NCBI RefSeq assembly: GCF_000025925.1
Contig: NC_014033.1
Coordinates: forward strand, 2,100,001-2,132,000
Length of the DNA stretch: 32,000 nt
Reading direction: 5' to 3'
Source of the DNA: Xylanibacter ruminicola 23
GTDB lineage: Bacteria; Bacteroidota; Bacteroidia; Bacteroidales; Bacteroidaceae
The notes beneath the pieces are model-generated. The model was not told where the DNA came from. It did not search any database and saw nothing but the letters and a program-made list of their open reading frames with translations. The position numbers and the translations under genes are program-made. Position 1 is the stretch's first letter. Each line of letters opens with the position of its first letter. Of this stretch, positions 4,959-20,050 are shown one piece after another.

Positions 4959-5025
4959 ATTTTGACAATATTACTTGCTTTATTACGCAAAAAAAACTTA
5001 TTAATTAAAAAAAATATTGATTAAT

Positions 5026-5058
5026 TTATATAATAATCAAAATAAAAATGTAACTTTG
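5026..5058 (+). promoter_or_regulatory. Candidate promoter for the 89-aa/345-aa gene pair
   Basis: TAACTTTG (5051-5058) matches TAnnTTTG, 42 nt upstream of ATG 5100. A TTTA (5026-5029) lies 21 nt upstream as an imperfect -33 element. Confidence 0.3.
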
Positions 5059-5099
5059 CAGCAAAATTGTAGCAATAATTCATTCATTCTAAGGCTATT

Positions 5100-5369
5100 A
5101 TGGGAAAAATGTCTATTGTTGATCCCGCATTAAACAAGGGGTACGGAATGCTTAGCGTTCTAGAGCAGAGTATTTCTCCTGCTGAGGTAAGGCGCTTGGA
5201 ACGTTTGGGGTATATTGAAAATGCAATATCTCCACAAGGAGCAACATGGCGACTTTCTGCAAAAGGAAAGCGTATGCGTAAGAATCTCATGAAAGGTAAT
5301 TCGTTTGCCATGCGATGCAGTGATTTCTTCTTCAAGCATGTGTTACGTTATAATGTGAGCTTGGAGTGA
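5100..5369 (+). CDS. Small 89-aa basic protein, possibly winged-helix-like
   Basis: ATG ORF whose TGA (5367-5369) overlaps the GTG (5366-5368) of the next ORF, suggesting translational coupling. The LERLGYIE...WRLSAKGKR segment resembles a wHTH recognition/wing region, but this is weak. I prefer it over the antisense ORF 5084..5335. Confidence 0.5.
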   Translation: MGKMSIVDPALNKGYGMLSVLEQSISPAEVRRLERLGYIENAISPQGATWRLSAKGKRMRKNLMKGNSFAMRCSDFFFKHVLRYNVSLE

Positions 5370-6403
5370 AAACGTATTATGTTTTATGGGTGCCCACATT
5401 GTCGGAACTAAAGCACCCCTTTTACTGCAGAGAAGAAGTTAATCATAAGTTAGAAGATTCAAAATGTCTTGGTGGTTATCATTTGAAGGGGCGAATAGAT
5501 TCGTCCCTTGATATTGAGATAGAGTACCGTAGGACGGGAGTCTATGGCCTATGGGAAAAGTTTATAGGCAAAAAGCCTGGTGTTATAAGACTGCATAAAG
5601 AGTCGGATATACTCAAAAGGGGATTTGTGCAGTATTCGAGTGAATTGCCAGAAACTGAACTCGATGAAATTCAAAAAGGATTGTGCGGAGTCCTAAAGTC
5701 GCCTATCTATCATTTTATAAAAGAATTCTTCCATAACCACACTCACCATCATGCTTCACAAGATAGCTTGTTGCAGGCATACGCAAGCCAGGAAATGGTG
5801 GATTTGAATTCTACATATGAAGAAATAACGCTTCACTATATCCATCAGTATCGGGATTTATTGATTGACTTCAATGAAGAGACTTCAGAACAGATTGTCC
5901 TTCTAAAAAATCGATTAAACCATGCTCGTCAAGTTAAGCAAAGCATAAATGCATTAGGCGATATCGTTAAGGCCGGCGACGACCTTAAGGGACAATTGGG
6001 TTATATGGATTTCCTGATACAGAGACTTGCTAGACCCTATAGCATACCGAAGGGATTGAGAAACGAGATTGAATTATTAAGAAACACAACTCGACAGATA
6101 TTAGATGATGCAAATACCTCATATAATGTGTCAACGGCAGCCTTGGGGATTAAATACGGCATTCAGGGTATTAGATTTGGATGTTGGGGCATAATTGTTA
6201 GCTGTGCGCTTTTTGCAATTTCTACCTATATCACCTGTAGCAACCATACTATTGAGGATGCTGTTGAGAGAGCTAAGCAGGAAATCATTAAGAGAGATAG
6301 TACTAATTATAAGCAAGTTACGGATTCAATACGAAACGACGTAAGCAAGGTAAAACACAATATTGATAAACTACAAAAGGAGGTCAGAAAACAAAGAAAG
6401 TAA
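5366..6403 (+). CDS. Hypothetical 345-aa protein with a His-rich patch, a C-proximal TM helix and a C-terminal coiled coil
   Basis: GTG start overlapping the upstream stop. HNHTHHH patch, hydrophobic segment FGCWGIIVSCALFAISTYI and a K/E/Q-rich tail. I recognise no family. Confidence 0.65.
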   Translation: MKTYYVLWVPTLSELKHPFYCREEVNHKLEDSKCLGGYHLKGRIDSSLDIEIEYRRTGVYGLWEKFIGKKPGVIRLHKESDILKRGFVQYSSELPETELDEIQKGLCGVLKSPIYHFIKEFFHNHTHHHASQDSLLQAYASQEMVDLNSTYEEITLHYIHQYRDLLIDFNEETSEQIVLLKNRLNHARQVKQSINALGDIVKAGDDLKGQLGYMDFLIQRLARPYSIPKGLRNEIELLRNTTRQILDDANTSYNVSTAALGIKYGIQGIRFGCWGIIVSCALFAISTYITCSNHTIEDAVERAKQEIIKRDSTNYKQVTDSIRNDVSKVKHNIDKLQKEVRKQRK

Positions 6404-6749: not shown

Positions 6750-6750
6750 A

Positions 6751-6963
6751 ATGGACACCAACACACGTCTGGCCATGCTGCAGATACTAGAAGAAAGGTA
6801 TGAGAGGAAGTCCGTTATCATCGTCTCTCAGCTGCCTATTAATAAATGGTATGACTACATTGGAGATCCCACTCTGGCCGATGCCATCATGGACAGATTG
6901 GTGTCAAATGCGAATAAAATTGAATTAAAAGGTGATTCTATGCGTCAGAAAAAGAAAAAATAA
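6751..6963 (+). pseudogene. istB: istB remnant (C-terminal 70 codons only)
   Basis: Encodes MDTNTRLAMLQILEERYERKSVIIVSQLPINKWYDYIGDPTLADAIMDRLVSNANKIELKGDSMRQKKKK, identical to the C-terminus of the intact IstB (13108..13839). In the track ORF 6700..6963 the first 17 residues are read out of the MITE-like repeat. Confidence 0.85.
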
Positions 6964-7072
6964 TTATCTTTGCACCCAGTTAGGCAGAGTCGATGATCAT
7001 GGTACCGTTTGCAGCGATACGGACGGTACCGATTACAGTGTTACACTTGGTACCGATACAGCGATATCAGCA
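6751..7072 (+). mobile_element. Truncated IS21-family copy (istB 3' end plus istB-proximal terminal repeat region)
   Basis: Near-identical by eye to the reverse complement of 12976-13320 in the intact copy. I saw two substitutions plus the absence of one 23-bp subterminal repeat unit. It ends ...GATATCAGCA at 7072, like the intact element's terminus. Confidence 0.85.
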
Positions 7073-10000
7073 TCTAACTTCTCCCACAATATCTCTTTCC
7101 CCGTCCATTTCAAACTTTCCACGTTCCTTAAACCTTATATAGCAGGCATTAAACTTCTCCTTAGGCATCTTCTTTTTCAGCAACTCAAAGAAGTTCAAAT
7201 CATGTGTAGTCATCACAATCTGTCTATCAAGCGAGAATGCTACATTCCTCAGCAGGTCTATCATCGACAATATATTAATGTCATCCAACGCCTGTATCGG
7301 GTCATCTATAAAAACGCACCCTACATCCTGTCCGTCATCTGTCTTCGCAAATAGAGCCTTTGCCATAAATATACAGAACGAAAGAATATTTACCTGGGCT
7401 GTACTAAAGTATAACGTCGGGACAATAGTATCGTTCCCTTCCGTCTTATTTCTCATATAGACGTTCAGTCGTGGCTTCGTCAAACTAAAATCACATTCAA
7501 ACCGTATCTCTTTATATTCTGGATGTGGGTCTATCGTATTATATAATCGCTGAATTTGATCAACTTGGAAAAAATTGGCCACATAGTCTTTGAGATATTG
7601 CTGGAGTCTCTCAATTTCATCTGATACAGCCTCATGATTACTCTCACTCTGAGATATTCTTTCCTTCATCTCCTTGATATCTTTCTTCACCTGTTGCTGC
7701 TGGTTATATTTCCTCGCAATTCCTAACATCGTCAAATATTCGCCCAGCATTGTCAGTTTCTTCTCAATCAAAGCCGATTCCTGTCGAAGCTTTGTCTTGT
7801 TTTCTTCAAACAACTGCACAATATCCCCAGCCGCTGTATCACTCGTAATTTCAGCGACTTTACACTCTTTTTTTAAGAACCGTAGAGTCTTGAAATATCT
7901 TTCTGCCAGAATCTCTCTTTCTTTATTCTTTTTATCATACTCTTCTTCTAACGCCACTTCTTTACTCAAATCAGCATGTTGTTCCTCCTTCAACGTCTTG
8001 CATTCGGCATTTGCCTCATTGATTTGTTTGTCATATTGGGCTATCGTTTCCTTCAAGTCGTGTATACGCGAACTCCAAAAATGCAGCGTCAAATCATCTG
8101 CGGTATCGTTTCCCAAAATCCGCTGATACTCCAGATAATCTTCTTTATTCTGCGTCTCGCTTATTACTTTCTGAGCCTCTATGCGCTTCCCTTCTTTCGC
8201 TTTCTTTTTTCTCTCAAGCAATTCAAGCGCCTTATCATTTTCTTCAATAGACTTATCCCTCTCATGGATTTCTTTTGCCAACATCTCCTTACTTTCAGCA
8301 TACTGTTTCTCAACCTGCTCCTTTGTCAGGTCTTTGAATCTTGAGTACTCCCCATCCACCTGTTCTTGGTTCATTCTGATGACTTTGTCTGCTTCTCGTA
8401 AGGCAGCGTTCACCTTTTCTTGCTCCCCATTCAAACGATTCAATTCCTGAACAGCATTTGCCACAGCTTCATCGATGACCTTATCAAATTGTTGATACCA
8501 TACCTCTCTTTCTTGATGGTCACGTTTATTTGCCTCTTTCAATTCTTCCCTTTTGGCAATAGCTTGTGCAACAGCTTTAGGCACCGCTTTGTTGTCTTCA
8601 ATACTCCTCAACAGATGTTCCACATTGGCGTAGTCATGGCCGCACAGTGGGCATACGCCTGTCTTCAACTCACTCACCATTTCTCTCGAACGATTCACGA
8701 GTTGGCTTACCTGGTTCTGAAATGCAGTCTGCTGATCAATACTTTTGGTCAATTCCGCAATTTCCATGTCACGACCGGAAATTCTCTGGCTCAGAACCAC
8801 TACGCGTTTCGATTCCTCTTCAAATCCTTCAATCTCAGCATCCACTTTCCTGCCATACACTTTCTGTTGTATGCCGCGTAGGCGGTTCATCTCTTTATTC
8901 TTTGTATCAATGCTTACCTTTTTCTCTGCAATTATTCCCGACAGTTCTGTTTTTTCCTTCTGTTTCAGGCTAATCTCTTTCAGGCAGCTTTGATATTTTG
9001 CATAGTCTGTATCTAAACATTTTTTCTTATTCTCAACGATATCTAACTGTGCCTTCTGTTTCTTTCGAGTTTCTTCTATACTGCTGCGTTCTTTTTCCAG
9101 CTTAGAGATTTGCTCTGCTAATGTAATCAGTTCATTGTCGCATGCGGTTATTTCTTTTTTCTTGGTATCAATCACTGTCCACAACTCCCTATACTGAGGG
9201 TACTTTTCCACCAGTTTCTGTAGTCGCGTCAGTCCGTTTACATGGTCCTTCCGTTCATTTCCGAGTTTTTCAACAAGGGCCAACAATTCTTTCAGTCTGA
9301 CAATTTGATTCAATTGTGTCCGCAGAATGGATATTTGTTTATCAATCTCTCCAATGGCTTTCAAATGCTCCGAAATATGATCCACAGCTATCAGACCATC
9401 ATACTCTCTTTCAATCTTTTCGCAATTTTCTAGAGCGTCATCTACCTGTCTCTTCGTTGCGTTCTCCTTTCCGGTTTTCTGATCGACTTCCATCGCAAGT
9501 TTTGCCAGGTTGTCGGCATCTATCTTCTGCTTCCAGCCTAATTTAACGCCCAAACTATTAAGGTCTGCCGCCATCTTGTCAAGGCGCTCAACTATGTGTT
9601 CATCTATATCGTTCTGCAGTTGCTTTTTCAGGTTATTGAGTTCTCTCGTCAGCGCACCTTTCTCTAGGGCCAGAGATTTTAACTTGGTTTTCAATTGCGA
9701 ATGATAGTCCAACAGGTCTTGCGACTCATGAAAATTTTCCATAAACAACTTAAACCTCGTCTCTGCATTATTTACAGAGAGGAATTCTGAAAACCAGTCC
9801 TGCGACAGGATAGCCTCCGAGAAAAACTTATTATGTCCTTCGCCTGTTAGCAGACTCTTCTCCTCATCCTTTGAGATGATTCTGTCCACCACACCGTTCT
9901 TGTATCCTTCTATGTCTAGTCTTATATGAATATCCTCTTCAGGCAGTTTCTTGTTGTGTATAAAACTGCTGAATTCCGATAGGCGGTTCTCGTTCTTCAT

Positions 10001-10213
10001 ATTCTCACTGAAGTTACTCAACTTCAGGCGGCGAATATTACTAGTCATTCCGAACTCGATGGCGTCAAATAGTGAGGTCTTTCCAAATCCATTGGGCGCA
10101 TAGACCGACACGAAGTTGGCACAACCCTTGTCTGCAAAACGTTGGTTTACAAACGAGAGTTCCACATCATCAAACAGGCGGAAAGCCTTGATTTTTATTC
10201 CCTTTAGTTTCAT
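7067..10213 (-). CDS. SMC/Rad50/SbcC-like coiled-coil ABC ATPase with a central zinc hook (LmuB-like / ABC-3C ATPase). The 3' end is fused to the IS21 terminus.
   Basis: Walker A APNGFGKT (K45). About 700 aa of K/E/Q-rich heptad sequence. Central CPLCG (nt ~8655..8636). C-terminal signature-like FSTAQ, Walker B CVFIDDP, D-loop ALDD and H-loop MTTHD. The last Cys codon (7072..7070) and the TGA (7069..7067) lie inside the IS21 terminal repeat. Confidence 0.8.
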   Translation of the reverse strand: MKLKGIKIKAFRLFDDVELSFVNQRFADKGCANFVSVYAPNGFGKTSLFDAIEFGMTSNIRRLKLSNFSENMKNENRLSEFSSFIHNKKLPEEDIHIRLDIEGYKNGVVDRIISKDEEKSLLTGEGHNKFFSEAILSQDWFSEFLSVNNAETRFKLFMENFHESQDLLDYHSQLKTKLKSLALEKGALTRELNNLKKQLQNDIDEHIVERLDKMAADLNSLGVKLGWKQKIDADNLAKLAMEVDQKTGKENATKRQVDDALENCEKIEREYDGLIAVDHISEHLKAIGEIDKQISILRTQLNQIVRLKELLALVEKLGNERKDHVNGLTRLQKLVEKYPQYRELWTVIDTKKKEITACDNELITLAEQISKLEKERSSIEETRKKQKAQLDIVENKKKCLDTDYAKYQSCLKEISLKQKEKTELSGIIAEKKVSIDTKNKEMNRLRGIQQKVYGRKVDAEIEGFEEESKRVVVLSQRISGRDMEIAELTKSIDQQTAFQNQVSQLVNRSREMVSELKTGVCPLCGHDYANVEHLLRSIEDNKAVPKAVAQAIAKREELKEANKRDHQEREVWYQQFDKVIDEAVANAVQELNRLNGEQEKVNAALREADKVIRMNQEQVDGEYSRFKDLTKEQVEKQYAESKEMLAKEIHERDKSIEENDKALELLERKKKAKEGKRIEAQKVISETQNKEDYLEYQRILGNDTADDLTLHFWSSRIHDLKETIAQYDKQINEANAECKTLKEEQHADLSKEVALEEEYDKKNKEREILAERYFKTLRFLKKECKVAEITSDTAAGDIVQLFEENKTKLRQESALIEKKLTMLGEYLTMLGIARKYNQQQQVKKDIKEMKERISQSESNHEAVSDEIERLQQYLKDYVANFFQVDQIQRLYNTIDPHPEYKEIRFECDFSLTKPRLNVYMRNKTEGNDTIVPTLYFSTAQVNILSFCIFMAKALFAKTDDGQDVGCVFIDDPIQALDDINILSMIDLLRNVAFSLDRQIVMTTHDLNFFELLKKKMPKEKFNACYIRFKERGKFEMDGERDIVGEVRC

Positions 10214-10214
10214 G

Positions 10215-10634
10215 TCAGCCTTTATTTATCAGTTTCACTATCTTTGAACTCTTCTTGAAATCTTCCAACTCCATATAAACACTATCATCAAATGAATATT
10301 TGATATAGCGGCCTATCACCTCTTCAAAATCACCCATGCGATAATCCTTGGTTGATATGACTATCTTTCGCGACGAGACGGTGTCGTGTTCTATCTTATA
10401 TTTTAAGGATATATCGTTCGCTGCATCCTCTTCAGCAAGATAGAATAGATAGTGGTTCCAGCGTTCAAACTCGTCTTCTATCATTCGCTGGCGTTCGGCT
10501 ATGTCATTCCTGATGTCTTGCCATTTATCCCGCAAATCATCATGATTCAATGGCTTCGTGATAAACACATCTACCTTCGACTGGATGTCAAACACATCCT
10601 GATCAAACATTTCGTAAAACTCTGTTATATTCAT
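10215..10634 (-). CDS. Small acidic helical protein, 139 aa (middle-component / LmuC-like by position)
   Basis: Its ATG overlaps the upstream TGA as ATGA (10631-10634). Its stop is 1 nt from the ATPase ATG. D/E-rich with no recognisable motif. The assignment is positional only. Confidence 0.6.
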   Translation of the reverse strand: MNITEFYEMFDQDVFDIQSKVDVFITKPLNHDDLRDKWQDIRNDIAERQRMIEDEFERWNHYLFYLAEEDAANDISLKYKIEHDTVSSRKIVISTKDYRMGDFEEVIGRYIKYSFDDSVYMELEDFKKSSKIVKLINKG

Positions 10635-11896
10635 ATCTTGCTCGTTATCAAATTTCTGTAGTATTCCATCTTATCACCGTCATAATCCCTGATTTCGTCT
10701 GTAAACGCTACCATCGCATCCTTAAAAAAGTGAGCATTCACATATACAAAACCTCCCATGTTCTCTCTGCCGTTCCTCGCTATGTTAAACTCTTGTTTGG
10801 GCTCTAATCCTATGGCTATATCCAATATATCCTTACCCCTTACGTCCTGCTTGTATCCCTTGGACTGTATGCCTCCTACCACAAACACTACGTTCACGTC
10901 ACTCACGGTTCCAAGTACACTCGGGTCTAGTGCACTAGGCGCTGAGTAGATATCAAAGTCTTTTTCAGACTGCACATACTGAAATCGGGGAAACACTTCA
11001 TCCAGATTGTTGGCAGCATCCAATCCCCATACGGCTTTCAGTGCTACAATGAACTCTCCAAATTTTACCCAATCATCTTTCTGTAGTTCTGAACCCAACA
11101 GATAATTATTAGTTTTGCGGCTTTTCTGAAAAGCATCGTAGCATTGCAGTGGTGATAAGTCCAACATTCCTGCTCTATAATGAGACATCATCATGAGTAG
11201 AGTTTTCAGTTTCTCTTTGGCTCCAAGATTGTTGTCGAAATTGAACATCTCATTCATGAATACCTCAAAATTACACTGGTATATTGTTGGTAATCCATTC
11301 TCTGCTATCACTCGTTCAAAGCAACTCCATGGTATCATCACGTTCTTGCCCAGTTGCTCTTTTTCTTCGCTTGCTGCAAGTTTCATGTGTACGCCCAACA
11401 AGTGATGGTTGTCGTCAAATATTCCACCACCCGACATACCATTCAACTCTTCTTGCTTGATATGATTCGGATACTTATATTCCTCAAAGTTATGGTCATA
11501 CGTTCCTAACCATGTATTAAAGTCATGCAGTTTACAACTATTGGCCTTACCATAGCTGTTCTGGTTGTTTGGATAGCCAGTATGCCAGTGGACAGCACCG
11601 TTTTGGCGGATGTTACTTGGCACAAACTGCACTATCTCACTATCATCCTTTTCTACAATGAGAATAGCAGCATCAAGTTCTTCATTATAAATGATTCGTT
11701 TAGCCTTGACGGTCTTATTTGTGAATGGGGATGTGGATAGGAAGTCGAAGATTATTTCGTCAACAGTCTTTCCTTTCACCACATGATATGCAGTCAATAT
11801 ATAGAAACAGTCATCAGCCAATGGCTTTATGATTACGCCACTGCCATTGGCTACTCTGACCGTTACTGATTTCATCTCGTCCTGATAATTCATCAT
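10631..11896 (-). CDS. Trypsin/chymotrypsin-fold serine protease with a ~230-aa C-terminal domain of unknown function (LmuA-like protease-type effector)
   Basis: Catalytic triad in the canonical order and spacing: H38 (LTAYHVV), D75 (ELDAAIL), S155 (NGMSGGGIF). The ATG directly abuts the stop of the upstream MBL gene. Confidence 0.75.
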   Translation of the reverse strand: MMNYQDEMKSVTVRVANGSGVIIKPLADDCFYILTAYHVVKGKTVDEIIFDFLSTSPFTNKTVKAKRIIYNEELDAAILIVEKDDSEIVQFVPSNIRQNGAVHWHTGYPNNQNSYGKANSCKLHDFNTWLGTYDHNFEEYKYPNHIKQEELNGMSGGGIFDDNHHLLGVHMKLAASEEKEQLGKNVMIPWSCFERVIAENGLPTIYQCNFEVFMNEMFNFDNNLGAKEKLKTLLMMMSHYRAGMLDLSPLQCYDAFQKSRKTNNYLLGSELQKDDWVKFGEFIVALKAVWGLDAANNLDEVFPRFQYVQSEKDFDIYSAPSALDPSVLGTVSDVNVVFVVGGIQSKGYKQDVRGKDILDIAIGLEPKQEFNIARNGRENMGGFVYVNAHFFKDAMVAFTDEIRDYDGDKMEYYRNLITSKI

Positions 11897-12892
11897 TCAA
11901 AAGTACCTTAGTCGCTCCGCTAAGTCCGGATAATCCTGTTTATCTTGTTCAGTAAATATCTTCTCTGCCCTTTCAGGATAGTTAAACCACAGTTTGGCAT
12001 CGGTCTTACCCACTATATACGATATCACTTCTTTATCAGGGTGGCCGAACTTCAAGCCATTAGTTGAGACAATATAATTCTCTGCCACTATCTTCTCTAA
12101 TAGTTCTGGGGAAAAGTTGTTTTTGCTGCCATGATGCGACAGTTTTAACCATTTACATTTCAGAGGTAGCTCTATTCCTGCTGTATGTTCCAGTGTGTCC
12201 ATCACTACATCTATGTTGGCATCTCCCAGCAGTAAGCAGTTCTCGCCGTCCTTTGTTTGAAGCAGGAAAGCCATCGAAGCATCATTCTCTGGTGTGCAGG
12301 TGCCTCGTTCGTATGGCTCTTTCAATAGCTTTTTGATGTCCTCATCATAACGGTCATTTGTAGTGTTATTCAGTTCGTCACCAATGTCCTCCGCTATTTT
12401 GTTATGGGCTTCCGCCGTTGGTGCCAGAGCTATAAGTCTTCCCCATTCAAACTGAAATACTCTTCCTTTGACAATCTTATTTTCAAACGGCACATTGTTT
12501 TCTTCCAGTATTTCCTTTAGCGAAGCCACCTGTGCGGAAGTATTCTCCAATCCCTTTCCGATGTTTACTTCTACATCGTCGTTCATCCAAATCTGCTTCA
12601 CGAACTCCGATGATGGAATTTCTTCATGGTACCACGCCAATACGCCTCCCACATGGTCATCATCTACATGTGTAATGATTAGCAGGTCTATAGCCTTACC
12701 TGCTTTTTTCAGTTTTTCCAACTTTTGTTTCAGATTACCATCCTCTGTTCTTCCATATCTACCACGATGGATATAGGTCCTAGGAGTACCACCATCTATC
12801 ATGATGATATATTCTTTTCCATCATAACAGATTGTTACGAAGATACAGTCTCCGTAATATGCCTTTATCACTTCTATATCAACTGTTATCAT
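11897..12892 (-). CDS. Metallo-beta-lactamase-fold hydrolase, 331 aa (ComEC/Rec2-type MBL variant, putative nuclease)
   Basis: ITH75-V-D-D-D-H80-VGG (a variant of HxHxDH), LLLGDA and LSHHGSKNN motifs in the MBL order. It is the first gene of the coupled operon. Confidence 0.7.
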   Translation of the reverse strand: MITVDIEVIKAYYGDCIFVTICYDGKEYIIMIDGGTPRTYIHRGRYGRTEDGNLKQKLEKLKKAGKAIDLLIITHVDDDHVGGVLAWYHEEIPSSEFVKQIWMNDDVEVNIGKGLENTSAQVASLKEILEENNVPFENKIVKGRVFQFEWGRLIALAPTAEAHNKIAEDIGDELNNTTNDRYDEDIKKLLKEPYERGTCTPENDASMAFLLQTKDGENCLLLGDANIDVVMDTLEHTAGIELPLKCKWLKLSHHGSKNNFSPELLEKIVAENYIVSTNGLKFGHPDKEVISYIVGKTDAKLWFNYPERAEKIFTEQDKQDYPDLAERLRYF

Positions 12893-12975: not shown

Positions 12976-13070
12976 TGCTGATATCGCTGTATCGGTACCA
13001 AGTGTAACACTGTAATCGGTACCATGCTAGCGCTGCAATCGGTACCGTCCGTATCGCTGCAAACGGTACC
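12976..13070. repeat. IS21 subterminal repeats, istB-proximal end (4 units of 23-24 bp, each ending in GGTACC)
   Basis: Units span 12976-12999, 13000-13023, 13024-13046 and 13047-13070. The truncated copy (7001-7072) has only 3 units. Confidence 0.8.
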
Positions 13071-13107
13071 ATGATCATCGGCTCTGCCTAACTGGGTGCA
13101 AAGATAA

Positions 13108-13839
13108 TTATTTTTTCTTTTTCTGACGCATAGAATCACCTTTTAATTCAATTTTATTCGCATTTGACACCAATCTGTCCATGATGGCATCGGCCAGAGT
13201 GGGATCTCCTATGTAGTCATACCATTTATTAATAGGCAGCTGAGAGACGATGATAACGGACTTCCTCTCATACCTTTCTTCTAGTATCTGCAGCATGGCC
13301 AGACGTGTGTTGGTGTCCATTGGTTGCAGTCCAAAGTCATCGAGTATAAGCAGGTCGTTCCGCTCAAGTGAAGTGATCATTTTCAGGAAGGTACCATCGA
13401 GCTTGCTGAGTGCCACCTTCTCTACGAAGCTGTTCATATTGAGGTAAGCCGTCCTGTATCCTAACATACAAGCCTGGCGCCCTAAGGCGCAGGCAATAAA
13501 AGATTTTCCACATCCGCACTTGCCCTGTATGAGCAAGTTCTCATGGCGACGTATAAAGGAGCAGTCTGCAAATGCTGCAAGATCGTCCTTCGTAAAGTTA
13601 CGGTCCGTGCCGCAGATAACGTCCTCTATCAGTGCGGTATATCTTAATCGACTAGTCTTGAGATACATCTCTGTCTTGCGGTTCCTTCTGTCCTGAGCTT
13701 CTGCCTCTGCCAGCCTGGCTATAGTTGCTTCCATTGCTGGGCGGTTCTGTACTGGCAGACTGAGGATTGACTCAAAAGCATCTGCCATGCCCTTGAGTTT
13801 GAGTTCTCTGAGTTGTATAACGGTTTCTTGTGAGTTCAT
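13108..13839 (-). CDS. istB: IS21-family helper ATPase IstB
   Basis: 243 aa. Walker A GKCGCGKSF and Walker B LLILDDFG. Typical size and position downstream of istA. Confidence 0.9.
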   Translation of the reverse strand: MNSQETVIQLRELKLKGMADAFESILSLPVQNRPAMEATIARLAEAEAQDRRNRKTEMYLKTSRLRYTALIEDVICGTDRNFTKDDLAAFADCSFIRRHENLLIQGKCGCGKSFIACALGRQACMLGYRTAYLNMNSFVEKVALSKLDGTFLKMITSLERNDLLILDDFGLQPMDTNTRLAMLQILEERYERKSVIIVSQLPINKWYDYIGDPTLADAIMDRLVSNANKIELKGDSMRQKKKK

Positions 13840-13855
13840 AATTATAATTTTGATG

Positions 13856-15409
13856 TTAGATATTAAATGCTTCTGCTCCCCTTACGTAGTCGTTCTGGGG
13901 CATCTGTGATACAGGTTCCTGATCGCCTGCCATGTCGAGGTTCTTCTCCAGGATATTCTTTATCATCGTATAGTTGACAGACCTATATCCAGCAAGCCTT
14001 TTGCAAGCATTCTCAAGTCTTATACTGCCATATCTGCGATTCAGACTGAGTACGCCATGACATGAGCCATAATTCTGCTCTACATGTCTGCTACGCTTAA
14101 GAATCGCCTCCATAGCCTGTCTTGTATAAGGCCCGATTTCTTCCGACTTTTCCAGGAAGTAGGCTGCATTGCACGCCTTTGTACGCATGTATTCCAGATG
14201 CTCGGGAGGCATATCTTCATCATGGGTAAAGGGATCCTTGATGCCATAACGGTCGTGCGTACTGATACGTGTATTGCCAGCGTAGACCTCCACAGTGTCG
14301 ATATCCCATACGACGGTAAGATGTTGTCCTACATACTGATATGGCACGCTATATTTACGGCCTGCCACTTGTACATGATAGTTACCTGACAGCTTGACCT
14401 CTTTGCGATAACGGAAGCGGAAAGGAGTATCAGGCAGTTCTCCAAGAGATGGTTTCTCTTCTGCCTCAAAAATGTCAAAACGACTTCTGCCTGTAACTTT
14501 CGATGGTTTTGAGTTAAAATCATCCAGCAGTTCTGAAATACGGCTGTTCATGCTGTTCAGGTCACTGATAACCTCATCATGAAGAGGCGCATAGATAGCG
14601 TTGTAGATTTTCCTGACTGCACCTTCTACAGAGCCTTTATCGCGAGGTTTCCTTACGCGACACGCTTCAAGCGTTGTGTCGTAGTATGCAGCCCATTCTA
14701 GCGCAGCGTCAGTGAAAACAGGTTCGTAACGGTCGTTCTTCTTTACCCATTGCTTCATGTTGTCACTCTTGGCTCTGCGCACTGTCCCTCCAAAATAGCT
14801 GAAGGCATCAGATAAACCTCCAAAGAAATACTCCATAGAGGCGTCAGGAAGTGCCTTTGCATAAGCCATTCCACTGAAAGGAAGCGTGCAGACTAACACC
14901 ACTACGCTGGTGATTTCGCCTGTCAGAGGGTCTGTTAGCCACAAGGCATCACCAGCAAAGTCAATCTGCATCTCTTCACCAGGCATATAGGTGTTATGAA
15001 AACTCAAGTTGTGGGCATACTGATAGTCACGGATAGCTTTCTTAAACTGAGTGTAACCATAGCCGTCGGGATGTTCACGCTTATAGTTCTCATGGAGATG
15101 CTGTATGGTCAGATAGCGGTTATGGGCCAGATCTGACACATAATCAGGAATCAGACCATCGAGGACAATTCTGGCATCAGATGGTGCTGATTCGGGTCTT
15201 GTTGACTTGAGGAACGACTCAAGGTCGACCTCGTTCATGCGGCCTCCATCTGCATACGACAGATGTCTTTCATCAGCCGCCTTCTTGTACTTGGCAAGTA
15301 CGCCACGTCCCATGTGCAGTTGTCCACAGATTTCGCGGTGTGGGATGCTTGCCGCCAGCATTTGAAATGCTCTTTTTAACTTGCTCATTGTTACATTTTG
15401 GTTTGCCAT
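13856..15409 (-). CDS. istA: IS21-family transposase IstA (HTH plus DDE domain)
   Basis: 517 aa. N-terminal HTH-like region (REICGQLHMGRGVLAKY). Integrase-core-like central region (QIDFAGD...). Located upstream of istB inside the inverted-repeat-bounded element. Confidence 0.88.
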   Translation of the reverse strand: MANQNVTMSKLKRAFQMLAASIPHREICGQLHMGRGVLAKYKKAADERHLSYADGGRMNEVDLESFLKSTRPESAPSDARIVLDGLIPDYVSDLAHNRYLTIQHLHENYKREHPDGYGYTQFKKAIRDYQYAHNLSFHNTYMPGEEMQIDFAGDALWLTDPLTGEITSVVVLVCTLPFSGMAYAKALPDASMEYFFGGLSDAFSYFGGTVRRAKSDNMKQWVKKNDRYEPVFTDAALEWAAYYDTTLEACRVRKPRDKGSVEGAVRKIYNAIYAPLHDEVISDLNSMNSRISELLDDFNSKPSKVTGRSRFDIFEAEEKPSLGELPDTPFRFRYRKEVKLSGNYHVQVAGRKYSVPYQYVGQHLTVVWDIDTVEVYAGNTRISTHDRYGIKDPFTHDEDMPPEHLEYMRTKACNAAYFLEKSEEIGPYTRQAMEAILKRSRHVEQNYGSCHGVLSLNRRYGSIRLENACKRLAGYRSVNYTMIKNILEKNLDMAGDQEPVSQMPQNDYVRGAEAFNI

Positions 15410-15485
15410 ATCTCGCTAAAGGTTTTGTATTTCCTTCGGCAAAGATAGTAATTAAACTTCAATGGCAGAACCGAAATGAACTTTT

Positions 15486-15647
15486 GGTACCGATTCGAGC
15501 GCTACAGCGGTACCGATTGGTGCGCTACGCTGGTACCGTTTGGAGTGCTATGATGGTACCGATTCAAGCGCTGCGGTGGTACCGATACAAGCGCTGCGGT
15601 GGTACCGATACAAGCGCTATGATGGTACCGTTTCGCCGATATTATCA
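15486..15647. repeat. IS21 subterminal repeat array, istA-proximal end (7 units with a 23-bp period, each starting with GGTACCG)
   Basis: GGTACC occurs at 15486, 15509, 15532, 15555, 15578, 15601 and 15624. These are presumed transposase binding sites typical of IS21-family ends. Confidence 0.8.
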
Positions 15648-15975: not shown

Positions 15976-16023
15976 TCAAAAATAACAAACCGCTAACCAA
16001 GCGTTTCTACTTAGTTAACGGTT
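15976..16023 (-). terminator. Rho-independent terminator of the 205-aa gene
   Basis: On the minus strand: AACCGTTAAC(TAAG)-loop-(CTTG)GTTAGCGGTT, a 10-14 bp stem with G-U pairs, followed by TTGTTATTTTTGA. It starts 30 nt after the stop at 16053. Confidence 0.55.
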
Positions 16024-16052: not shown

Positions 16053-16670
16053 CTATCTCTTGGCAAGAGGCAACGCTTCTTTCAACAAGCGCCTTTTCTC
16101 TTCATCGTATACCATTGAAATCTTACCAACCGGTTTTCCTCGGCCTTTTACATTTTCAAACAATTCTATCACAACATCTTCGGGCGAATAAATAATAAAG
16201 GCTCCTAACAATGTTCCATATACACATTTCAATTCCTTTCTAACAGGTTTTGGAGACACAAGAGACTTTAATCGAACTCTATCCTCATCGCGGTTTTTGA
16301 GGTTTTTCTTTTTCTTCATTTCAACAGCCAGGTAATTTGGCGCTTCACCTCTGCTTTGTATCAAAAGATCGCTCACCATATCTTTTGGCAGATGTTTACT
16401 ATTCTCGTATCTCTTAATTTCTCCATTACCCATACGATTATATTCTACATCTGCATAATACTTAGCAAAAAATGGTTTTTCTTTTCTCGCATCATATCTA
16501 CGCATAATGTTCTCCATATGAAGAGCCAATCTGGCGCAGATATTTCGTTCCGACACATCAAATTTGATATTCTCATAATCAAACTCATAAAGATACTGCA
16601 ATGCTGGTATCAATACCTCATCAAGAATAATCTCTTGTACGCTCTGTTCTCTAATTTTTCTTTCTTCCAT
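16053..16670 (-). CDS. 205-aa PD-(D/E)xK-like (restriction-endonuclease-fold) protein
   Basis: Motif arrangement: a helix with E (ERNICARLALHMEN), ...VSD-LLIQ..., ...YLAVEMKKKK (D...ExK). It shares its first 8 codons (MEERKIRE) and its leader with the 289-aa gene. Confidence 0.5.
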   Translation of the reverse strand: MEERKIREQSVQEIILDEVLIPALQYLYEFDYENIKFDVSERNICARLALHMENIMRRYDARKEKPFFAKYYADVEYNRMGNGEIKRYENSKHLPKDMVSDLLIQSRGEAPNYLAVEMKKKKNLKNRDEDRVRLKSLVSPKPVRKELKCVYGTLLGAFIIYSPEDVVIELFENVKGRGKPVGKISMVYDEEKRRLLKEALPLAKR

Positions 16671-16860
16671 AATTTTGATTTTTAGTTATTGAATATCAAT
16701 TATTCCTCACCTTTGCTTTTGTTAAGCAGGCCCCACTTGATTGATTGTATGAGAGTCATCCAAGTGGAGGCCTGCGTTATAACGAACTTTTTATATTGAT
16801 ATCTCACGACATCTCGTACCTTGATGCCACGAACCCGTCCCCTATCAGGATGGCGTGGTT
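16646..16860 (-). repeat. Leader repeat, copy A (~215 bp: upstream region plus first 25 nt of the 205-aa CDS)
   Basis: Aligns with 19843-20050 at roughly 90% or better identity by eye (about 11 substitutions and 2 short indels). Contains a 50-nt bulged hairpin at 16726-16775. Confidence 0.85.
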
Positions 16861-16936: not shown

Positions 16937-17203
16937 CTACAGAGATTGCCCATCAAAAGGAACAAAATCTATATCATTAAAGTCACTGATAACGATCCTT
17001 ACATTGGGAGTATCAGAGTGTTCTTCCACAAAAGTGTTATGACCTTTTGTTCCAACATATTCTCTAACAGCATTGTCCATCACAGCATTGATTGCCGCAA
17101 TATTACTAGGATCACATGGCACATTAGCCCTAAAAACTGCAATCTTAAAACATTTGCCACTTTCTTGTTTGATAACAGTTTCAAATACATCAATTTTCTC
17201 CAT
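16937..17203 (-). CDS. Small 88-aa hypothetical protein
   Basis: ATG ORF, same strand, 100 nt downstream of the NdpA-like gene. No recognisable motif. Overlapping plus-strand ORFs look like antisense artefacts. Confidence 0.5.
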   Translation of the reverse strand: MEKIDVFETVIKQESGKCFKIAVFRANVPCDPSNIAAINAVMDNAVREYVGTKGHNTFVEEHSDTPNVRIVISDFNDIDFVPFDGQSL

Positions 17204-17303
17204 AGTTGTACAGTTTTAGTTAATAATTATTGTAATATAAAAAGCCGATTATATTGCTTTTTGTTTGTGAATTTCTTCGATTCTTTTTCAAGGTTATTAC
17301 ATT

Positions 17304-18329
17304 TTACTTCTCCTCCTTAAAATACAACTTATAGTATTTCATTCCTTTTTCTTCATCATAGCCTTTTTCCAGGAGATTCTCCCCACCTCGGATGCTGATG
17401 CCAAAATTATCATCCAGCTTGATGTTTGTCATATTGCCGAACGAGAGCTTCTTTAATGCCAGTGGTTCCGTTTTAAAATGGTCCACCACGCCATTACCAT
17501 CCTCTGTGATTGCATCTTGATTATACTTCAAAAAGCCCTGCGCGGTCTTTTCATCATCAAAAACACAGCCAACCATCTCTTTCAAGTCAAAATCGCCTCT
17601 TTTCAGAAAGTCCGTCAACCTATTGAGCATCATTGCCCTTTCATTCTTATCTACACTCTCTGTTAGCGACTTCACATAATCCTTACATACATTAATGGCC
17701 CTTTTCGTCTGATTATAACCATCATTTCTTGGAACCACATGCAAGAAGTCATCAATCCAGTATTTAGCTTCAGCACCACGTTTTGTCCTATCTACAACAG
17801 CCACAACATAACCATGTTCTTTTTCTATATTAAATATCAAGCAGCCTTTATCCAGTTTTTGCACATTTACCCCCATATCAAAATCAACAGACACATCGTC
17901 CTTTTCGTGCTTCACCTTCAAAAAACGTTCTTTATTCTCTGCTTTAAACAATCCTATCGCATCCACTAGTTTATGGTCTACTTCGCAGTTTTTAAACAGT
18001 ACCACAAAAAAATCACCTCCATTAATTTTTGGATGATTACTATGCTCATATAAACATCCTGCGATATCTATCGACTTCTCTACCAGAGTATTGTTGTCAT
18101 CAAAGATAGCAGAAACATGAGAATAAACCTCATTCATCTTTAACTCAGCCTCATGGTAGAAGTGGCAGAGAGCCTCAAGTTTAAATGGAGATAGGAAATA
18201 ATATTTTAGCATATTCTCCATCGCATCATCTATATACAACGAGTGGGAAGAGGTCTTTATCCCCTCTTCCGCCACTCTATTACCAACATAATGCACTATA
18301 GCGTTTGCTATTTTTATATTCTCATTCAT
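17304..18329 (-). CDS. Nucleoid-associated protein NdpA/YejK-like, 341 aa
   Basis: Resembles the YejK layout: N-terminal I-x-x-A-I-V-H-x-V-G-N, then GGDFFVVLF..., VNVQKLDKGCLIFN and AEAKYWIDDFLHV. This is pattern recognition from memory, not a search. Its start overlaps the upstream stop by 8 nt. Confidence 0.55.
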   Translation of the reverse strand: MNENIKIANAIVHYVGNRVAEEGIKTSSHSLYIDDAMENMLKYYFLSPFKLEALCHFYHEAELKMNEVYSHVSAIFDDNNTLVEKSIDIAGCLYEHSNHPKINGGDFFVVLFKNCEVDHKLVDAIGLFKAENKERFLKVKHEKDDVSVDFDMGVNVQKLDKGCLIFNIEKEHGYVVAVVDRTKRGAEAKYWIDDFLHVVPRNDGYNQTKRAINVCKDYVKSLTESVDKNERAMMLNRLTDFLKRGDFDLKEMVGCVFDDEKTAQGFLKYNQDAITEDGNGVVDHFKTEPLALKKLSFGNMTNIKLDDNFGISIRGGENLLEKGYDEEKGMKYYKLYFKEEK

Positions 18330-19011
18330 ATTTATTAAGATGATTTTTTAATACTCCAATTACCGCTTCCTTAATATCTTTCCACAAGCCATCCTCCTCA
18401 TTCTTGGTCATTTCTATATCCTGTCTTACGCAAAAATGAACAGTCTGCCCATAAGTAAAAAGATTCACAACCGTAGAACACAATAGAAGCATTGAAAACA
18501 GCCCAAAGAACAGAAGTGTAATATATATAAAGAAGTTTAATATTAAACAAACACATTCATTATCCACTGTCAGTTTCTGTTTCACAATCAAGTGAACACA
18601 AAACGCCAGTATCAAAGTAAAACATTGTATCAAAACCGATGATGCAAACACACAACTTGTGGTCTGAAAAAAACTCAGTTTCTGTTTGGTGCTCTTTAAT
18701 GGTTCCGACATACGTCCAATCAATTTCAAATCCGAAACGCCAATAATAAGCGCATACCCAGCAAGACTAAATCCTAGCAAACTAGGAAATGTTGATAGTA
18801 CGGTCGAGGCTAAATCATCTATATACTCAAATATCCGATTAGCCTCCCTGTTAAAAAAGAGCAAACATCCCCCAAACAGACAAGTTAAAATCAAACCAAA
18901 CTTAAACACAAAAGACTTTCGTATTTTGTCGATAGTATATCCATTACGGAATATCCCATCAATACTCACTTTGTGTCTCGTTCTCAGATCATTATCATCA
19001 TCCATTACCAT
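18322..19011 (-). CDS. 229-aa integral membrane protein (4 predicted TM helices)
   Basis: Hydrophobic segments are FVFKFGLILTCLFGGCLLFF, LSTFPSLLGFSLAGYALIIGV, SCVFASSVLIQCFTLILAFCVHLIV and VCLILNFFIYITLLFFGLFSMLLLCSTVVNLF. It overlaps both neighbouring genes (14 nt and 8 nt). Confidence 0.75.
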   Translation of the reverse strand: MVMDDDNDLRTRHKVSIDGIFRNGYTIDKIRKSFVFKFGLILTCLFGGCLLFFNREANRIFEYIDDLASTVLSTFPSLLGFSLAGYALIIGVSDLKLIGRMSEPLKSTKQKLSFFQTTSCVFASSVLIQCFTLILAFCVHLIVKQKLTVDNECVCLILNFFIYITLLFFGLFSMLLLCSTVVNLFTYGQTVHFCVRQDIEMTKNEEDGLWKDIKEAVIGVLKNHLNKYE

Positions 19012-19867
19012 TATTTCTAAATAAGTTCACCACTTGCGTCACTATATTCTTACGTAGAAGTGTCTCCTTGCATCTAATTGCAAGTGTTTTGGGGTGCCAA
19101 TCTGTAACAATCTTAGATGATACACCATCTTTTATAATTGAGGCCGTAACCTTTCCATAATGCTGAGCCAATCCGATAGCACCTTTAAGAATTCTCACAT
19201 TAACATCTATGTTACCGGTATTATCTGGAGTACCTTCTATTTTCAATCGTTTCATATGAGCAGCCTTCATCTGGTCATCCATAAATTCCATCGCTTCATC
19301 GCCATTGTCCTGATTACTATACGATACGTCAATCTCAAGTTTCTTTACGATATCAGCCTGGAATATCTGTTCAAAGTCCGACTCATCCTGTTCTTTTGTC
19401 ACCAAGAAATCCTCCCCTTCTTCTATAACCTGTGCTACAGCCTCATTTAAGAACTTCTCTACAGCATTTGCGCTGAAGCCACTTTTCATCACAAAAGCCA
19501 TTCGGTGTGCACCTGGTACAAAGAAGAAATCAGATTCCTTCAGATTGGGGAATGTATTTCTTGGAAGGTCAACACTCTCCACCTCCATATTCTCCAGATT
19601 AATCCAATCCTTGCCATCGATCACAGTATATGTTGAGATGCTTCCATACAATACGTCCCAGTTTCTGCCATTCACTTCAACCACATTATTAAACAGCGTA
19701 CGTAAAATCATATGCCTATCCCCTCTAATTGGGATCGAAACCTTTTCCTGGTTTATCTTCTTAATAATGTCAGTATAAGCAGCATCACCAGTACGGCTGT
19801 CCGACATCAACTTTACGTTAATCATCTGAACTTTATAGTTCAGTTCTCTAATTTTTCTTTCTTCCAT
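18998..19867 (-). CDS. 289-aa hypothetical soluble protein, first gene of the cassette
   Basis: ATG ORF with good coding texture. No motif recognised. Its N-terminus MEERKIRE and upstream ~190 bp are duplicated at the 205-aa gene. Confidence 0.75.
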   Translation of the reverse strand: MEERKIRELNYKVQMINVKLMSDSRTGDAAYTDIIKKINQEKVSIPIRGDRHMILRTLFNNVVEVNGRNWDVLYGSISTYTVIDGKDWINLENMEVESVDLPRNTFPNLKESDFFFVPGAHRMAFVMKSGFSANAVEKFLNEAVAQVIEEGEDFLVTKEQDESDFEQIFQADIVKKLEIDVSYSNQDNGDEAMEFMDDQMKAAHMKRLKIEGTPDNTGNIDVNVRILKGAIGLAQHYGKVTASIIKDGVSSKIVTDWHPKTLAIRCKETLLRKNIVTQVVNLFRNNGNG

Positions 19868-20050
19868 AATTTTGATTTTTAGTTATTGTACATAGATTAT
19901 TCCTCCCAGGTTTTGCTTTTGTTAAGCAGGCCCCACTTGAGTGATTGTATGAGAGTTATCCAAGTGGAGGCATGCGTTATGACAAACTTTTTATATTGAT
20001 ATCTCACGACATCTCGTACCTTTGATGTCACGTACCCGTCCCCTGGCAGG
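19843..20050 (-). repeat. Leader repeat, copy B
   Basis: See copy A. The hairpin is at 19926-19975. It starts ~30 nt downstream of the stop of the last polysaccharide-locus gene (20078). Confidence 0.85.

Follow-up and report, generated by a model that had tools for sequence, protein, structure and literature searches.

A RexAB-like gene pair coupled to a YejK-like nucleoid-associated protein: a candidate three-gene anti-phage module in Xylanibacter ruminicola 23

In this study, we analysed a 32,000-nt window of Xylanibacter ruminicola 23 (NC_014033.1, positions 2,100,001 to 2,132,000 of the forward strand; positions below are those of the window), in which three overlapping minus-strand genes form a conserved unit. 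Gene 1 (18998..19867) encodes a 289-aa DUF4747 protein with a RexA/RdgC-like two-domain fold, gene 2 (18322..19011) a 229-aa four-transmembrane (four-TM) protein and gene 3 (17304..18329) a 341-aa NA37/YejK-like nucleoid-associated protein (NAP). By analogy with characterised systems, we interpret this trio with moderate confidence as an abortive-infection-type anti-phage module, composed of a Rex-like pair and a recruited nucleoid-integrity sensor of the PANGU type. The reading is carried by the folds of the soluble proteins, the topology of the membrane protein, the tight coupling and co-inheritance of the genes, the nesting of the NA37-bearing systems in one clade and the location in a defence island.

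Genes 1 and 2 overlap by 14 nt (18998-19011) and genes 2 and 3 by 8 nt (18322-18329), and a gap of 100 nt lies between gene 3 (17304) and a small open reading frame (ORF) of 88 aa on the same strand (16937..17203), which is outside the conserved core. These coordinates, overlaps and the gap had been given exactly in a preliminary description made from the sequence alone. It also stated that the genes are co-translated; the overlaps fit translational coupling, while co-translation itself is deduced from them rather than observed. Ratios of nonsynonymous to synonymous divergence (dN/dS) of 0.02-0.15 against close relatives (0.02-0.04 for gene 1) indicate purifying selection on the three large ORFs, which are therefore real genes. 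The cassette has a GC content of 35-39%, compared with 44-47% in the DNA on both sides, which carries an IS21 insertion sequence and an epimerase gene.

The gene 1 protein had been described as lacking a motif that could be placed. However, it matches Pfam DUF4747 (PF15931) with 112.1 bits (E=3.9e-32, profile positions 10-250 of 257), above the gathering score of 27 bits, and it also matches phrog_10040 (E=6e-25). The best match of its AlphaFold2 model (predicted local distance difference test, pLDDT, 84.5) in the PDB is lambda RexA (8twq_B, E=1.1e-7, prob 1.00; Foldseek), followed by RdgC (2owl, E=8e-4) and then CENP-N/Chl4. The same structural relatives, RdgC and CENP-N/Chl4, were reported for RexA in its crystal-structure paper (PMC11077077). 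Against BFVD, the model matched gut phage proteins (E=1e-18, TM 0.77), and a tblastn search of 50,697 GenBank phages gave no match to the protein. The relationship to RexA surfaced in the fold search only: PDB sequence searches with the gene 1 and gene 3 proteins and with a profile of 25 DUF4747 sequences gave only non-significant matches (E 0.36-1.2). We propose that gene 1 encodes a cytoplasmic DNA-binding sensor or activator.

Gene 2 encodes a compact four-TM protein, as had been noted: four hydropathy peaks were found at about residues 34-54, 68-93, 117-142 and 155-186, and a soluble domain is absent. Its N-terminus and central loop are rich in lysine and arginine, and because of this distribution an N-in/C-in topology with cytoplasmic termini is predicted. 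Among 13 diverse relatives, six polar residues within the helices or adjoining them are invariant (Q116, S119, N159, N183, Q189 and H192) and Q129 is nearly so. These residues are compatible with the lining of a pore, without proving that there is one. The protein matches phrog_20580 (E=7.7e-10) and no family in Pfam, NCBIfam or PADLOC. By analogy to RexB, we propose that it is the membrane effector. It is also the fastest-diverging member of the trio (23 non-identical loci). In comparison with three near-identical cassettes (L027, L029 and L035; L numbers denote individual loci), the membrane gene (18322-19011) stands out as a block of excess divergence, with 7-10% nt difference and a synonymous divergence (dS) of 0.26-0.33 against 1.3-3.9% nt in the flanking genes, and the differences are concentrated in TM1-TM2 (residues 36-71). 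Positive selection was ruled out, as dS is raised too, and the block resembles a tract that was recombined in from a diverged allele.

RexAB-type systems (lambda RexA/RexB, Sbash gp30/gp31, CarolAnn gp44/gp43, Butters gp30/gp31 and P. putida RexABpp) consist of a cytoplasmic protein of ~280-370 aa with a RexA/RdgC fold or DUF4747 signature, followed by a small four-TM protein. Genes 1 and 2 have the same architecture, with a RexA-like two-domain fold in the predicted model and a four-TM partner immediately downstream, and they likewise show translational coupling, a location in accessory DNA and relatives of the pair on prophage or viral contigs. In the literature, exclusion by RexAB, Sbash gp30-31 and CarolAnn gp44-43 has been tied to DUF4747 (PMC6426596, PMC6426606, PMC13373217), the link of CarolAnn gp44 being a weak HHpred match, and a "DUF4747/CarolAnn prophage system" has already been named (PMC13373217). 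One member of the DefenseFinder RexA set also maps to DUF4747. Upon infection by a phage, lambda RexA is believed to activate the membrane channel RexB and so to collapse the membrane potential, and Sbash gp30/31, CarolAnn gp44/43 and P. putida RexAB act like lambda Rex. Unlike Rex systems, the trio is found in Bacteroidales, in a chromosomal defence island and not beside a phage repressor, and it has no detectable sequence homology to RexA, RexB, gp44 and gp43. It also differs from the five Rex-like systems described so far in having a third coupled gene, that for NA37 (PMC12894663). At E<=1, the trio proteins match neither Pfam RexA (PF15969) nor RexB (PF15968), and lambda's own RexA and RexB match these families at 1e-97 and 8.5e-92; CarolAnn gp44 itself has no Pfam match at E<=1. 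By analogy, the pair would work like a Rex system without being a member of the lambda Rex families.

Gene 3 encodes an NA37 protein (PF04245, E=1.1e-29, 104 bits), whose AlphaFold2 model (pLDDT 87) has E. coli YejK (9BE2) as its sole significant PDB match (E=2.3e-11, TM 0.52; Foldseek); Iml3 reached only E=1.5. The resemblance to NdpA/YejK seen in the preliminary description was thereby borne out, and the choice that it had left between PF04245 and DUF4868, the family of KwaB, falls to the former, DUF4868 being absent at E<=1. Neither Pfam nor Foldseek revealed a helix-turn-helix (HTH) or sequence-specific DNA-binding domain beyond the NA37 fold. RdgC-like or Iml3-like echoes occur in both soluble families; despite these, paralogy of the two proteins is not claimed, as hhalign gave a probability of 0.5% for the DUF4747 and NA37 profiles. 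In fold, gene 3 resembles E. coli YejK/NdpA and gene 1 resembles RdgC. Unlike those standalone core genes, the genes studied here are operonic, accessory and horizontally mobile. A full-length NA37/YejK fold without an extra domain is what one would expect if gene 3 encoded an ordinary nucleoid-associated protein that merely adjoins a two-gene Rex-like system, but this is very improbable, judged from the window and the loci of relatives. A housekeeping NdpA/YejK gene stands alone in a conserved neighbourhood, whereas the 8-nt start/stop overlap of gene 3 with the membrane gene is kept in relatives, the gene co-varies with the other two, the same trio is found in unrelated neighbourhoods, its GC content is low relative to the flanks, and the closest NA37 relatives outside the trio are operonic as well (with GAPS4 or other genes). 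The previous suggestion that the NdpA-like protein stands outside a housekeeping context is therefore supported.

YejK-like proteins have recently been connected to phage defence. In PANGU, degradation of the host genome by T4 EndoII makes a YejK-like protein detach from the nucleoid, after which this protein binds and activates an effector; the effector is a toxSAS in type I, whereas type II combines the NAP with the membrane effector Pag2B, which has a soluble DMK domain and a C-terminal TM segment (bioRxiv 10.64898/2026.04.06.716658). NA37 proteins also defend in the DefensePredictor system D390. The trio resembles PANGU in that a YejK-like NA37 protein shares a tight operon with partners that are not NAPs, including a membrane protein, near defence genes in defence islands, and in that the NAP is modular and combined with differing partners. 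It is unlike PANGU in being tricistronic rather than a bicistronic NAP plus effector, with the NAP encoded last and added to a pair that is common without it. Compared by description, Pag2B also differs from the compact four-TM protein, which has no soluble domain, and neither partner of the NA37 protein matches toxSAS in Pfam. By its description, "Cluster4" of the PANGU preprint, in which the NAP gene is preceded by two hypothetical genes, may be the architecture reported here. The trio had first been likened to Kiwa. The pairing of a four-TM membrane protein with a soluble protein of DNA-binding fold is indeed common to both, but the soluble partners of the trio have RexA-like and YejK folds, and membership in Kiwa was rejected, since PADLOC gave no match to KwaA/KwaB and Pfam none to DUF4868 at E<=1. 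The view that the gene content matches no named system had to be revised: the first two genes have a RexAB-type architecture, with RexA as top PDB match, and NA37-based defence already bears the name PANGU. The combination of the three genes, its origin by NA37 recruitment and its prevalence in gut Bacteroidales were not described in the literature searched.

The trio is a conserved coupled unit, as the preliminary description had supposed. In Dysgonomonas, Alistipes timonensis and many metagenome contigs from the gut or rumen, the relatives of gene 1 (48-90% identity) are all followed by the same genes in the same order with tight junctions; gene order and start/stop overlaps are kept in relatives at 36-99% identity, with synteny extending down to about 36%. 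Nucleotide homology to other lineages spans 19889..17305 and ends there. The identities of the three proteins to those of the window co-vary (r=0.96-0.98, n=23 non-identical loci); because the loci are phylogenetically related, these correlations show co-inheritance and not independent events. A scan of genome contigs gave only 6 loci owing to its narrow peptide patterns, and the taxonomic breadth rests mainly on metagenome contigs. With the membrane protein as query, we recovered 64 loci from metagenomes and 31 viral loci from IMG/VR. Of the loci in which the upstream gene can be seen, almost all have a DUF4747 gene directly 5' of the four-TM gene, including 25 of the 31 viral contigs. An NA37 gene follows the pair in 22 of the 64 metagenome loci but behind no viral pair, and two-gene systems without NA37 are the majority. 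In a neighbour-joining DUF4747 tree (without support values), the NA37-bearing systems group in a single clade, with L068 as the one exception, and this clade is nested within the two-gene systems of Ancylomarina, Rufibacter, Carboxylicivirga and viral contigs. Because of this nesting, we regard the two-gene pair as the ancestral unit, to which NA37 was recruited later.

The gene after NA37 is variable in the relatives: it encodes a DSR2-like SIR2 protein, PDC-M62A/B, AbiEi, an AlbA_2-HATPase_c_4-HTH protein (three lineages) or a housekeeping radical-SAM-like protein, or there is none. A conserved "fourth effector gene" was therefore rejected, the next gene often being an independent known system, and we consider the system to consist of three genes, with the neighbours as independent residents of the defence island. 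The protein with SLFN_AlbA_2, HATPase_c_4 and Fic-like_C/HTH domains directly follows NA37 in three separate trio lineages (L005:10521-11861, L008:10487-11992, L044:6584-8020) and in a different NA37 operon (L018:6060-7565); the spacing is a gap of 3-27 nt in three of these loci, and in L044 the called ORF overlaps.

The relationship of NA37 to the pair can also be read differently. In the main alternative, the DUF4747 and four-TM pair is a complete system and NA37 is a negative regulator or antitoxin-like tether, which holds the DUF4747 protein or the operon DNA inactive instead of acting as a sensor. The prevalence of two-gene systems, also on viral contigs, implies that the pair works without NA37; NA37 is always encoded last and is swapped between modules, as accessory regulators often are, and the recurrent AlbA_2-HATPase_c_4-HTH gene behind it hints at a regulatory layer. 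However, the NAP of PANGU is a positive activator of its effector, and the NA37 protein itself carries neither an HTH nor another sequence-specific DNA-binding domain beyond its NA37 fold. We therefore consider a restraining NA37 unlikely.

Outside the trio, NA37 proteins that are 43-46% identical to the one in the window are encoded by the last gene of a GAPS4a/GAPS4b module (L132:2946-6044), and GAPS4 is reportedly a DNase that responds to breaks in DNA (bioRxiv 10.1101/2025.09.07.674715). In other operons, a terminal NA37 gene is combined with genes for a divergent NA37-like protein of 346 aa and an uncharacterised protein of 508-525 aa (L018:2464-6032; L133:2466-6032). These operons lie in neighbourhoods with type I restriction-modification (RM) and SIR2-STAND genes. 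In the NA37 tree, both the GAPS4-linked and the 346-aa-linked sequences nest within the trio-linked ones. Returning to NA37 as a trigger, we propose by analogy that gene 3 encodes a nucleoid-integrity sensor or regulator that was added to the pair. More tentatively, the YejK-like protein might be a portable chromosome-integrity sensor on unrelated effector modules, which here would supply the never-identified trigger of a Rex-type system; this broader idea is possible but doubtful.

How such a module would act can be outlined from the characterised systems. The core pair would be the cytoplasmic DUF4747 protein and the translationally coupled four-helix inner-membrane protein. Like RexB, Sbash gp31 and CarolAnn gp43, the membrane protein, once activated, would dissipate the membrane potential and halt growth of the infected cell. 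As in PANGU, the NA37 protein would sit on the host chromosome; degradation of the nucleoid by a phage, or damage to it, would release NA37 and license the Rex-like module, potentially via the DUF4747 protein or via the cytoplasmic N-terminus or central loop of the membrane protein. For the defence function, the division into sensor and effector and the trigger, we infer from precedent only.

Several points weigh against this reading. The link to RexA comes from a predicted structure, and the global TM-score between the gene 1 model and RexA is only 0.26, which may reflect a different orientation of the two domains, RexA having been crystallised in a closed state. Sequence comparison does not recover the relationship: hhalign probabilities are below 1% for the gene 1 protein with lambda RexA and with CarolAnn gp44 and for the gene 2 protein with lambda RexB and CarolAnn gp43, so that homology to the CarolAnn/Sbash family was not found either; the 25-sequence DUF4747 profile misses RexA among the PDB sequences, and the PADLOC-DB v2 models match none of the three trio proteins. 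Furthermore, the main effector of Butters is the cytoplasmic protein and not the membrane one (PMC7542560), and DNA binding by RexA is not strictly required for exclusion (PMC11077077); for these reasons, the sensor and effector roles could be reversed. The defence role of the trio is argued by analogy, and activation, repression and mere localisation of the pair by NA37 would look alike in the sequence.

The 88-aa ORF had been counted as a member of the cluster, but it lies outside the conserved unit. It is a real small gene and lineage-specific: an exact copy is located 100 nt after the trio in L027-L029, L031 and L032, and its family shows 65-97% identity without indels, all full-length members having 88 aa. 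It is absent from all other trio lineages, the homology to 77%-identical relatives ending at 17305, and neither Pfam nor PADLOC gave a match. The cassette of trio and 88-aa ORF is bracketed by a direct repeat of ~211 nt (90.5% identity). R1 (19840..20050, minus strand) comprises the leader 5' of the DUF4747 gene together with the first ~9 codons (MEERKIRE) of this gene; R2 (16643..16849, minus strand), a second copy of the leader, provides a 205-aa gene (16053-16670) with its upstream region and first ~9 codons and marks the downstream boundary of the cassette. Both copies also flank the cassette in L029, L031 and L032, loci whose assemblies are interrupted at the repeat, and the part of R1 that is common to other trio lineages is only that from 19889 downstream. 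Through the start codon and first ~9 codons carried by the repeat, the DUF4747 gene and the unrelated 205-aa gene both begin with MEERKIRE. As members of the DUF4747 family natively begin in this way, the 205-aa gene appears to have taken over a DUF4747 leader, and the arrangement suggests cassette swapping behind a fixed leader. R1 presumably carries the operon promoter; a scan for sigma-70 promoters was not above chance, Bacteroidota promoters being outside its coverage. No part of the window, the 211-nt repeat included, matched an RNA family in Rfam, and an NCBIfam search gave no matches.

Two further observations concern this region. A strong terminator-like hairpin of 15 pairs with a T-run lies just past the 205-aa gene (15988-16023, minus strand), and no comparable terminator separates the NA37 gene from the 88-aa ORF or the latter from the 205-aa gene, so that all five genes could be on one transcript. 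In L030 (ENA ERZ761557 NODE_86), the NA37 3' end and an 88-aa ORF that is 100% identical to that of the window are joined to enterobacterial type III secretion genes; the break of the contig falls within the 211-nt repeat, and the join is probably a chimera of the assembly.

Repeats that bound the cassette would also fit a role of the trio in a mobile element, such as exclusion, addiction or stabilisation of an integrated element, or a switch of the lysis-lysogeny type, rather than in phage immunity. Relatives of the pair occur on IMG/VR viral contigs, some trio copies lie beside a resolvase or conjugative-element-type genes (HTH_17, DUF5712), and in lambda, RexA is able to bias the switch without RexB (PMC11077077). 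Nevertheless, such a role appears improbable, because in the window and in most relatives the trio is adjoined by polysaccharide genes and defence systems and not by phage or integrative-element genes, and none of the 31 IMG/VR loci has an NA37-bearing copy.

The neighbourhood of the trio is that of a defence island. On its downstream side, at about 4.4 kb, lies a complete Lamassu operon (7067-12892) with LmuA (MBL and protease), LmuC and LmuB, and IS21 istA/istB (13108-15409) is located between Lamassu and the 205-aa gene, which is weakly PD-Lambda-3_A-like (PADLOC E=6.6e-7) and TnsA-like. Upstream of the trio are capsule or polysaccharide genes. Several relatives are also found at the distal end of a polysaccharide locus, with different polysaccharide genes, and others adjoin a resolvase, the conjugative-element-type genes named above or ordinary metabolic genes. 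Defence genes near the relatives encode DSR2-like SIR2, PDC-M62A/B, AbiEi, AbiC-like proteins with a helicase, and type I RM. The island proposed in the preliminary description was thus recovered with Lamassu, IS21 and the weakly PD-Lambda-3_A/TnsA-like gene, but the deaminase that it listed was not found among the complete ORFs scanned at 2631-6403. Two plus-strand ORFs in this interval beside Lamassu (2631-4958, 775 aa; 5366-6403, 345 aa) match no family of Pfam or PADLOC at a useful threshold and are possibly another uncharacterised resident of the island. An inverted repeat of 346 nt with 92.8% identity (6750-7072 and 12976-13321) brackets Lamassu; as its right copy overlaps the 3' end of istB, the left copy is taken as an IS21 end fragment, and it may be IS21 that moved or captured Lamassu. 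Five tandem 23-nt repeats (TGGTACCGAT...) at 15485-15645 match 12988-13088, beyond the other IS21 end, in inverted orientation (74%). Because of this match, they most likely represent the multiple terminal repeats of IS21 and not debris of a miniature inverted-repeat transposable element.

Rex exclusion is the oldest known phage-defence phenotype and a 70-year-old puzzle, and both the triggering of RexA and the opening of RexB are still unsettled. Our data place a large family of DUF4747 and four-TM pairs in Bacteroidota and their phages, one clade of which has joined the pair with a YejK-like protein, the sensor type of PANGU. They also add to the gut Bacteroidales an unrecognised candidate defence module, which is repeatedly located at the ends of capsule loci and is missed by PADLOC v2. 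If it is true that a nucleoid protein gates a Rex-like effector, the trigger would be the loss of an intact chromosome. In that case, nucleoid proteins would be exchangeable sensor modules across unrelated effectors, namely the Rex-like pair, the GAPS4 DNase and the pair of NA37-like and 500-aa proteins.

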